From: Candidatus Saccharimonadota bacterium
Lineage (GTDB): Bacteria > Patescibacteriota > Gracilibacteria > UBA4473
NCBI GenBank assembly: GCA_030429505.1
Contig: JAUIFI010000001.1
Coordinates: 240,001 to 272,000 of the forward strand
Direction: 5' to 3'
Length of the DNA stretch: 32,000 bases
Under the pieces are notes generated by a model. It saw nothing but the letters and a program-made list of their open reading frames with translations, was not told the origin of the DNA and made no database searches. Shown in pieces: positions 16,590-17,569 of the stretch. The position numbers and the translations under genes are program-made. Positions within the stretch are counted from its first letter, which is position 1. Each line of letters starts with the position of its first letter.

Positions 16590-17072
16590 ATGAATAAAAT
16601 AAATTCCGTTTTTGACTCTCAATGTTCTATACGATTAATTCTCGTCTTTACTTTCAGTTTACTGATTTCCAATCAAGTCAGCGCCCAAATGGCTGATGAT
16701 CATCAAGGATGTTTTCATGACTATACAATTTGGGATTCTTCTTATAACTATGATCCTGATGGAAAAGACTGGAATTTTAAGTTTATGACGAATAATACGC
16801 AATCCAACATTCCCTCTGTGGGATATGTAGATCTTCAGCCCGTAAATTTTTTACAACAATTTCTTGATCTCAATGGTGATGGACTACCAGATTACATCTA
16901 TTCGTTGCATGGAAAAAATCAAGGTCCACAAGGTGGGGCTGGAGAATATGTGATTCGGGATTGTATAGCACTTAATACTGGATCTGGTTTTGATATCGCT
17001 TATAAGTGCGTCTATGACTTGGATGCCAATGGCACAACCCGAAAATATCACGGTGATTGTGCCGGTGATTAA
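16590..17072 (+). CDS. Small secreted 4-Cys protein with one FG-GAP/TcB-propeller-like blade motif (paralog 1)
   Basis: 160 aa with a signal peptide (LILVFTFSLLISNQVSAQ). Motifs are CFHDYTIWDSS, FLDLNGDGLPDYIY, LNTGSGFDIAYKCV and YHGDCAG. It is a paralog of 17096-17569. Confidence 0.75.
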   Translation: MNKINSVFDSQCSIRLILVFTFSLLISNQVSAQMADDHQGCFHDYTIWDSSYNYDPDGKDWNFKFMTNNTQSNIPSVGYVDLQPVNFLQQFLDLNGDGLPDYIYSLHGKNQGPQGGAGEYVIRDCIALNTGSGFDIAYKCVYDLDANGTTRKYHGDCAGD

Positions 17073-17095
17073 TCGTATTTTCTAATTTTTTTCTC

Positions 17096-17569
17096 ATGTC
17101 AGTTTTTCTCTCGGCTCTTCGTTCTCAGCAAATCATAGCTTGGCTAATCATTGGGATTCTCTTAGGTTTTATGGTCAATGCTCAGTTTGTATCTCAGGCG
17201 GAGGAAGTGCCGGAAATAAGTGGTATAGTCTATAGCAGTGATGAAAGTGCTCCTTGTCTTAGTGATTATCAAGATTGGGATAGTTCTGGAACTTTTAAAA
17301 GTGGTGTTTCATGGGAAACTTACAATATTATCGGACAACAGAATAATGGAGGTGGGAGCATTCCTGTAAACCAGTTTTTAGAGATTAACGGTGATGGCTT
17401 AGTCGATCATGTCTATTACTATAACAGGATATCAGATAACAAAGCATACGTAGACGCCTGTACCATGCTCAATACAGGCTCAGGCTGGGAGATTGTGTAT
17501 AAATGTGTTACCACAGCTCAGGATGGAGTCTTTACCTACTACGGCGACTGTGCCGATACTTCTTCATAA
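17096..17569 (+). CDS. Small secreted 4-Cys protein with one FG-GAP/TcB-propeller-like blade motif (paralog 2)
   Basis: 157 aa with a signal/TM segment (IIAWLIIGILLGFMVNAQ). Motifs are CLSDYQDWDSS, FLEINGDGLVDHVYY, LNTGSGWEIVYKCV and YYGDCAD. It ends 8 nt before the RHS gene start. Confidence 0.75.
   Translation: MSVFLSALRSQQIIAWLIIGILLGFMVNAQFVSQAEEVPEISGIVYSSDESAPCLSDYQDWDSSGTFKSGVSWETYNIIGQQNNGGGSIPVNQFLEINGDGLVDHVYYYNRISDNKAYVDACTMLNTGSGWEIVYKCVTTAQDGVFTYYGDCADTSS

Follow-up and report, generated by a model that had tools for sequence, protein, structure and literature searches.

Organization of the locus

The stretch of DNA studied here (the window) comprises 32,000 nucleotides (nt), positions 240,001 to 272,000 of contig JAUIFI010000001.1 (GenBank assembly GCA_030429505.1), which is assigned to a Candidatus Saccharimonadota bacterium. 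Two small genes, A and B, lie in it directly upstream of a large gene for an RHS-type polymorphic toxin (Table 1). At the level of sequence profiles, the core of the A and B proteins is homologous to a single blade of the TcB-type FG-GAP propeller, a structure that the RHS toxin encoded next to them does not have. The open reading frames (ORFs) of A and B have the coordinates, lengths and translations that were given in an earlier note on this DNA, made from the sequence alone.

A and B are separated by 23 nt (17073-17095) and B is separated from the RHS gene by 8 nt (17570-17577), with TTTTTCTCATG before both, in agreement with the tight linkage to the RHS gene described in that note. It is proposed that the three genes are co-transcribed. 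The surroundings of the small genes yielded no credible sigma-70 promoter or terminator pattern, and their AT-rich upstream spacer contains no Rfam element. A T-rich junction, TTTTCT[CT][AT]TG, precedes all three gene starts (16575-16592, 17083-17098 and 17567-17580), where a GGAGG Shine-Dalgarno sequence was not recognisable.

A and B are true paralogues with 34% identity over 127 amino acids (aa) (BLASTP, E 1e-16). The motifs that had been reported as common to the two proteins (C..DY..WDSS, QFL[DE][LI]NGDGL.D..Y, LNTGSG[FW][DE]I.YKCV and Y[HY]GDCA) align, and so do the four cysteines. Both proteins have a hydrophobic N-terminus with an AxA-like site (VSA/QM in A, VNA/QF in B, the slash marking the predicted cut); as read from the sequence, the predicted signal peptides comprise aa 1-32 and aa 1-29, respectively, and both proteins are predicted to be exported and cleaved. 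In A the family domain described below extends from aa ~41 to 160, with cysteines at positions 41, 125, 140 and 157 and a calcium-type loop, DLNGDGLPD, at aa 93-101 (nt 16866-16892). In B the cysteines are at positions 54, 122, 137 and 152, the loop EINGDGLVD occupies aa 96-104 (nt 17381-17407), and the blade-homologous core is formed by aa ~64-134. The two loops are putative Ca2+-binding sites.

Table 1. Positions of the small genes, the RHS gene with its segments, and the ORF at its end
Feature	Position	Strand	Basis
Small protein A, 160 aa; distal, more divergent copy	16590..17072	+	ORF, BLASTP, family hidden Markov model (HMM)
Small protein B, 157 aa; RHS-proximal, more conserved copy	17096..17569	+	ORF, BLASTP, family HMM
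SpvB-plug-RHS polymorphic toxin, 1886 aa, predicted Sec-exported, without beta-propeller	17578..23238	+	Pfam, NCBIfam, BLASTP
SpvB domain, RHS aa 103-307	17884..18498	+	Pfam PF03534, E 2e-19
TcdB_toxin_midN (plug/constriction-type), RHS aa 373-462	18694..18963	+	Pfam PF12256, E 3.6e-8
53-aa segment, RHS aa 394-446, at the site of ~520 aa with seven blades in P0108	18757..18915	+	BLASTP against P0108
RHS repeat-associated core, RHS aa 1621-1702, ending ...NNPLKYTDPTGN	22438..22683	+	TIGR03696, E 1.9e-21
Variable C-terminal toxin tip, ~184 aa	22684..23235	+	No Pfam model matches
130-aa ORF over the RHS stop codon, CxxC...CxxC motifs	23231..23623	+	No family match

An undescribed family of small proteins predicted to be exported

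Neither A nor B gave anything meaningful in Pfam, NCBIfam or PDB sequence searches, and a word-indexed homologue search with protein B alone as query returned B itself as the sole match. A profile built from A and B was compared with 1.84 billion cluster representatives in an exhaustive HMMER search (E <= 1e-3), and 783 hits were obtained, the best 150 of which split into two classes. Within these 150, class 1 consists of 82 single-domain proteins (98-225 aa) that match across the whole domain and about a dozen proteins in which two or three domains with the same motif set are arranged in tandem, amounting together to ~95 hits. The class 1 motifs are C-x2-[DN]-[YF]-x2-W-x2-S, an invariant W, F-x-D-x-N-G-D-G-L-x-D, C-x2-L-N-x-G-x-G-[WF]-x3-[YF]-x-C and, 7-10 residues from the C-terminus, [YF]-G-D-C-A. 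A and B carry the full set behind an N-terminal signal/anchor segment, and they were recognised by a family HMM of 77 members with E values of 2e-38 and 3e-40, respectively. This large family, for which no description was found in the literature and no Pfam or NCBIfam model exists, is an undescribed family of predicted Sec-exported domains of ~110 residues, and is referred to below as the solo-blade family.

An N-terminal hydrophobic run is present in 89 of 99 small family proteins, and the invariant columns of the family include all four cysteines. The loop residues at positions 1, 3, 5 and 9 are the same in 119-120 of 120 complete family domains, B being the only one with E instead of D at position 1. 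The cysteine pattern is CCCC in 99 of these domains and --CC in 19. Since C1 and C2 are lost jointly, the disulfide pairs in the solo-blade domain are probably C1-C2, in the N-terminal cap, and C3-C4, in the C-terminal hairpin.

Many family members (P0041, P0154, P0162, P0165, P0166 and P0170 among them), A and B not included, have a conserved amphipathic helix (…L..L.ESQ..L.E.L…; alignment columns ~75-100) between signal peptide and domain, which may be a docking or anchoring element. In another member, P0011, two family domains are joined to a long, extracellular-looking N-terminal region.

Homology of the core to propeller blades

Class 2 of the best 150 hits comprises large proteins (600-3400 aa), which match the central ~50 profile columns only, but do so 5-7 times each with a period of about 60 residues. 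Of the 14 that were scanned by Pfam, 12 have SpvB, TcdB_midN or RHS together with FG-GAP-type blades, and an SpvB or RHS character could be detected in no fewer than 43 of the 56 large hits. When the small family was aligned with the blade units of class 2 proteins by hhalign, the match reached a probability of 99.1% (E 1e-18) over 60-71 columns (B residues ~64-134), a test that is partly circular, the blade units having been picked with the family HMM from Pfam-called FG-GAP_3 proteins. Compared with the PDB, the blade-unit profile had its best matches in the propeller regions of TcdB2-TccC3 (6e-5) and YenB (4e-4), followed by CRTAC1 and integrin alpha-L, and a PVL motif match was also found. 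With the family profile itself the PDB matches were at the motif level only (CarG, E 1.3; integrin alpha-L, E 1.6). The Pfam model FG-GAP_3 (PF13517) was weakly reached by 6 of the 77 family members (best E 1.6e-4) and PF01839 by two of them.

Both A and B contain, in a unit of ~60 residues, a D-x-[DN]-x-D-G-x-x-D loop (with E at its first position in B) and then an N-x-G-x-G-[FW] turn. The suggestion of the earlier note that the two proteins are built around a single FG-GAP blade is thus borne out by the profile comparisons, and can be narrowed to blades of the TcB type, that is, of SpvB-propeller-RHS proteins. There is no tandem array of 6-7 repeats: A and B have one unit each, and the loci have 1-3 units. 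The idea of a bare blade did not hold, because the first N-terminal cysteine motif and the C-terminal YKCV...YYGDCA hairpin lie outside the blade homology, so that the domain has a cap and a hairpin of its own, each with a probable disulfide, and an AlphaFold model of B aa 45-157 was a compact monomer with a predicted local distance difference test score (pLDDT) of 87.7 and a predicted template modelling score (pTM) of 0.80. From an alignment of the A and B sequences only, the pLDDT was 45.

The RHS protein and its missing propeller

The RHS gene starts at ATG 17578 (MRKILSLL...) and not at the mechanical start 17503, in agreement with the signal-peptide N-termini of homologues. Its product has a predicted signal peptide of aa 1-26 (site TFA/QE) and RHS repeats (PF05593, E 2e-23), whereas no Pfam match to FG-GAP or VCBS was found in it. 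BLASTP with P0108 (2187 aa), the closest propeller-bearing relative, aligned 2-393 of the window protein to 34-416 of P0108 and 447-619 to 990-1160. These blocks flank the ~520-aa seven-blade segment of P0108, which is therefore absent from the window toxin, and the earlier observation that no FG-GAP repeats lie between its SpvB and midN segments was confirmed in both ways. The midN match covers profile positions 71-160 only; the N-terminal part of the profile, which is missing, overlaps the last blade in propeller-bearing proteins (FG-GAP and midN hits in P0007 and P0013).

Between signal peptide and SpvB domain there is an acidic low-complexity linker rich in Pro, Thr and Glu (RHS aa 27-95; 17578-17860), and similar linkers are found in L007, L009 and L015, three of the loci described below. 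An insertion of ~230 aa rich in Gly and Asn precedes the Rhs core (21733-22422, RHS aa ~1386-1615) and has a weak GLUG-motif match (E 0.009). It is absent in the shorter homologues (1603-1649 aa), was not found in the 1878-aa protein of L007, and may be an externally displayed beta-helix. The toxin tip contains a motif, HF/HY-x-[RD]H-[GK]G-[DE]-[FL], that is common to the tips of L007 and L015.

Association of the small genes with propeller-less RHS genes

Contigs encoding family members and contigs found by a family-specific DNA pattern were taken as loci and processed by one pipeline. The family-specific pattern yielded seven metagenome contigs, mostly short, whereas a generic pattern, D[LV]NGDGL[LV]D, retrieved contigs with propeller-bearing RHS proteins only, which were reused as negative controls. 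A locus was considered testable if it had at least ~1 kb of downstream sequence; four other contigs end too early. In the window and in L006, L007, L009-L012 and L015-L017, a large ORF is directly preceded on its own strand by a small gene, by two of them, or by a two-domain fusion, and in testable loci the distance to the SpvB-RHS gene is 0-100 nt. The SpvB/midN region of the partner ORFs is colinear with residues 96-470 of the window RHS protein, and the partners are therefore without propeller. In the opposite direction, a search from the RHS N-terminus returned three propeller-less SpvB/midN homologues (L021, L023 and L024), all with a family gene immediately upstream.

Taken together, in 13 of 13 independent testable loci the small gene or genes directly precede a propeller-less SpvB-RHS gene, whatever its toxin tip, and no small gene was present near the six propeller-bearing relatives (L002-L005, L025, which encodes P0108, and the P0014 contig). 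The co-occurrence with SpvB-RHS genes in related genomes, which the earlier note had put forward for testing, was thus found in both search directions. All RHS partners begin with a predicted signal peptide. Their toxin tips vary, with Tox-REase-9 in L009 and three or more further types, whereas the small proteins are conserved; the latter therefore follow the conserved shell rather than the toxin and its immunity protein. The named sources of small-gene loci are Patescibacteria group bacteria, with which one locus using genetic code 25 agrees; the propeller-bearing controls come from, or resemble, other phyla (Gammaproteobacteria, Omnitrophica and a contig with a protein carrying a type IX secretion system tail). 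The code 25 locus is L024: its RHS gene and the family gene before it read through without interruption only if UGA is taken as a sense codon, which suggests a host of the Gracilibacteria or Absconditabacteria type for this family member.

Paralogues within a locus are often nearest relatives, with identities of 68% in L007, 67% in L017 and 55% in L010. Across loci, the copy next to the RHS gene is better conserved: B of the window is 49% identical to L014_p2, whereas A is at most 40% identical to anything. A division into two ancient subunit types, A-type and B-type, was considered and rejected, within-locus pairs being usually each other's nearest relatives.

Comparison with known systems

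The propeller of TcB closes or gates the cocoon below a plug-like constriction, and opens on binding of TcA (PMC6868009). A and B resemble this propeller (TcdB2-TccC3, PDB 4O9X/6H6G; YenB, 4IGL) in the D-x-N-G-D-G-x-x-D loop followed by N-x-G-x-G-[FW] and in the association with an SpvB-plug-RHS cocoon. They differ from it in that one blade is encoded per separate, predicted-exported polypeptide, and in that the solo-blade domain has an extra N-terminal cap, a C-terminal hairpin and four cysteines, which are missing in TcB-type blades. Unlike in Tc toxins, there is no TcA candidate in the 32-kb window, where no other ORF exceeds 477 aa, and a gating role of solo blades is putative.

The TcdB/TcaC pathway was defined by a signal peptide, SpvB and an integrin-like propeller (Zhang et al. 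2012, PMC3482391). The window toxin shares with toxins of this type the signal peptide, the SpvB domain, the RHS shell, the Rhs core, a variable tip, candidate immunity genes and orphan cassettes, but the propeller, the determinant of the pathway in that definition, is absent, and a blade-like domain is encoded in one or two upstream genes. RhsA, a type VI secretion system (T6SS) Rhs effector of P. protegens, likewise has no propeller, and its seal is a plug that shares homology with the TcB constriction domain (PMC8765631); propeller-less cocoon, plug of this kind and separately encoded partners are features that T6SS Rhs effectors have in common with the window locus. In contrast, those effectors use PAAR/VgrG delivery and cytoplasmic chaperones, whereas the window locus has predicted Sec signal peptides, an SpvB domain and four-cysteine partners predicted to be exported. 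The FG-GAP/VCBS repeats of integrin alpha, CRTAC1 and PVL lectin (PF01839, PF13517) have the same calcium-binding loop consensus, but they form 7-fold tandem arrays that close into a propeller, whereas A and B have a single unit, which falls below the Pfam models. RHS polymorphic-toxin loci are of a known kind; what is new is that a TcB-like cocoon without a propeller has a solo-blade partner encoded in trans.

Possible role of the solo-blade proteins

We propose that the solo-blade genes are functionally tied to the conserved N-terminal and shell part of an RHS toxin that has lost its cis propeller. We favour, tentatively and with slightly less than even confidence, a reading in which A and B are accessory subunits that derive from a TcB-type blade and, once exported, cap or gate the propeller-less cocoon at its N-terminal or plug end or serve there as an adaptor for docking. 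The core of each would be one TcB-type FG-GAP repeat unit with a D-x-N-G-D-G-L-x-D loop and an N-x-G-x-G-[WF] turn, preceded by a family-specific N-terminal segment that C1-C2 would pin and followed by a C-terminal hairpin, ending in YYGDCA, that C3-C4 would lock. After export the small protein or proteins would attach to the RHS cocoon, at its plug end or close by, and the bound protein would supply in trans part of the role of the TcB propeller, either capping or gating the exit or docking onto a partner surface. Physical binding to the RHS protein and a role as gate or adaptor are both inferred. A more specific form of this reading, in which single blades, secreted separately and probably clamped by disulfides, sit on the plug end in place of the Tc-type propeller gate, possibly as a small Ca2+-dependent oligomer, appears unlikely to us.

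The earlier note had recognised an FG-GAP/VCBS blade signature in A and B; its loop and turn motifs and the profile homology stood, but the Pfam FG-GAP models are not reached by A or B even at E <= 10. Several observations weigh against the accessory-subunit reading. Foldseek, proposed in the earlier note as a check of the small proteins against known structures, found neither a propeller nor any other significant fold in the PDB with the confident monomer model of B, so that support for the blade fold comes only from sequence profiles. The structure predictions covered monomers, and contact with the RHS protein is hypothetical. In T6SS Rhs proteins the plug alone seals the cocoon, so a trans cap is not strictly required. 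The complementary distribution of small genes and propellers could go back to one event of loss and gain within a single clade; with the controls apparently from other phyla, the 13 loci and six controls do not amount to 19 independent observations. Finally, L007 has a second pair of small genes (14988-15889) on the 3' side of its RHS gene and the small ORFs that belong to it, with no second RHS gene after the pair, an exception to the upstream rule.

The blade homology of the core and the strict association with propeller-less RHS genes could also mean that six or seven copies, as homo- or hetero-oligomers of A and B, form a complete propeller ring in trans under the RHS plug. Small oligomeric propellers exist in nature, two-blade lectins that trimerise being an example. 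Such a ring is nevertheless improbable: the loci have one copy, two copies, or two or three copies fused, and most pairs are recent local duplicates, which disfavours a fixed stoichiometry of 6-7 blades and, with it, a fixed set of small subunits rebuilding the propeller. The extra cap and hairpin with their probable disulfides and the compact monomer model also speak against it, and the 'velcro' feature that closes propellers was not identified. A surface adaptor or adhesin, in which Ca2+-dependent modules would tether the RHS toxin to the producer envelope or to a target receptor and the propeller site would stay unoccupied, is a more serious alternative, though on balance we regard it as rather unlikely. 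Predicted export, probable disulfides and the calcium-type loop would suit this role, as would the amphipathic helix of many members, the long extracellular-looking region of P0011, and the faster divergence of the distal than of the proximal copy, as expected of a surface-recognition element. For a generic adhesin module, however, it would be unexpected that the nearest homologues are specifically TcB-type blades and that family members were observed only beside RHS genes that lack a propeller.

Tight operon linkage to the toxin gene that follows would fit a protective factor, that is, an extracellular inhibitor, an immunity-like protein or a folding/export chaperone of the RHS toxin. We consider this very improbable, since immunity proteins track the variable tip and lie downstream, whereas the small proteins are encoded upstream and are conserved across at least four tips; moreover, candidate immunity genes are already present 3' of the RHS gene and of each orphan cassette, and the predicted signal peptides are at odds with cytoplasmic chaperones. 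The immunity-protein reading of A and B in particular was rejected on account of upstream position, predicted export and conservation across different tips. That unrelated small secreted proteins merely adjoin the RHS gene, with no functional link, is hardly credible: in the 13 loci, sequences that are only 25-50% identical keep order, strand and short gap, and the reverse search from the RHS N-terminus recovered the small genes again.

RHS/Tc cocoons are a major toxin-delivery scaffold, and a partner family made from the repeat of the missing propeller is a candidate for the missing function, here in bacteria of the Patescibacteria type, whose mode of life is attachment to other cells. If single blades have indeed taken the place of the propeller gate, the RHS toxin would consist of two or three components, with a gate or adaptor that is detachable, and the small proteins would be natural free-standing propeller blades, a form that has been suggested as the ancestor of whole propellers. 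A single blade that is natural and folds stably would be useful for studies of propeller evolution and for the engineering of cocoon gates. A Pfam-style family model would label roughly a hundred 50%-identity clusters that are now hypothetical.

Other features of the window

By its position only, the 130-aa ORF that overlaps the end of the RHS gene is a candidate for the cognate immunity protein. On the 3' side of the main RHS gene there are three orphan RHS C-terminal cassettes (23944-24624, 26394-27422 and 27856-28350), which restart in conserved shell-end/core sequence (e.g. DTWEGELENPQSLNRYSY...DPSGN) and continue into different tips, the third being truncated; they are a typical displaced-toxin array. 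Two paralogous multi-pass membrane proteins, encoded at 25916-26410 (164 aa), directly before the second orphan cassette, and at 27419-27880 (153 aa), directly after it, both end in ELYYKVPWKKVF and may be membrane immunity proteins. Adjacent genes for tRNA-Leu(TAA) and tRNA-Cys(GCA) are located at 5435-5595 on the minus strand.

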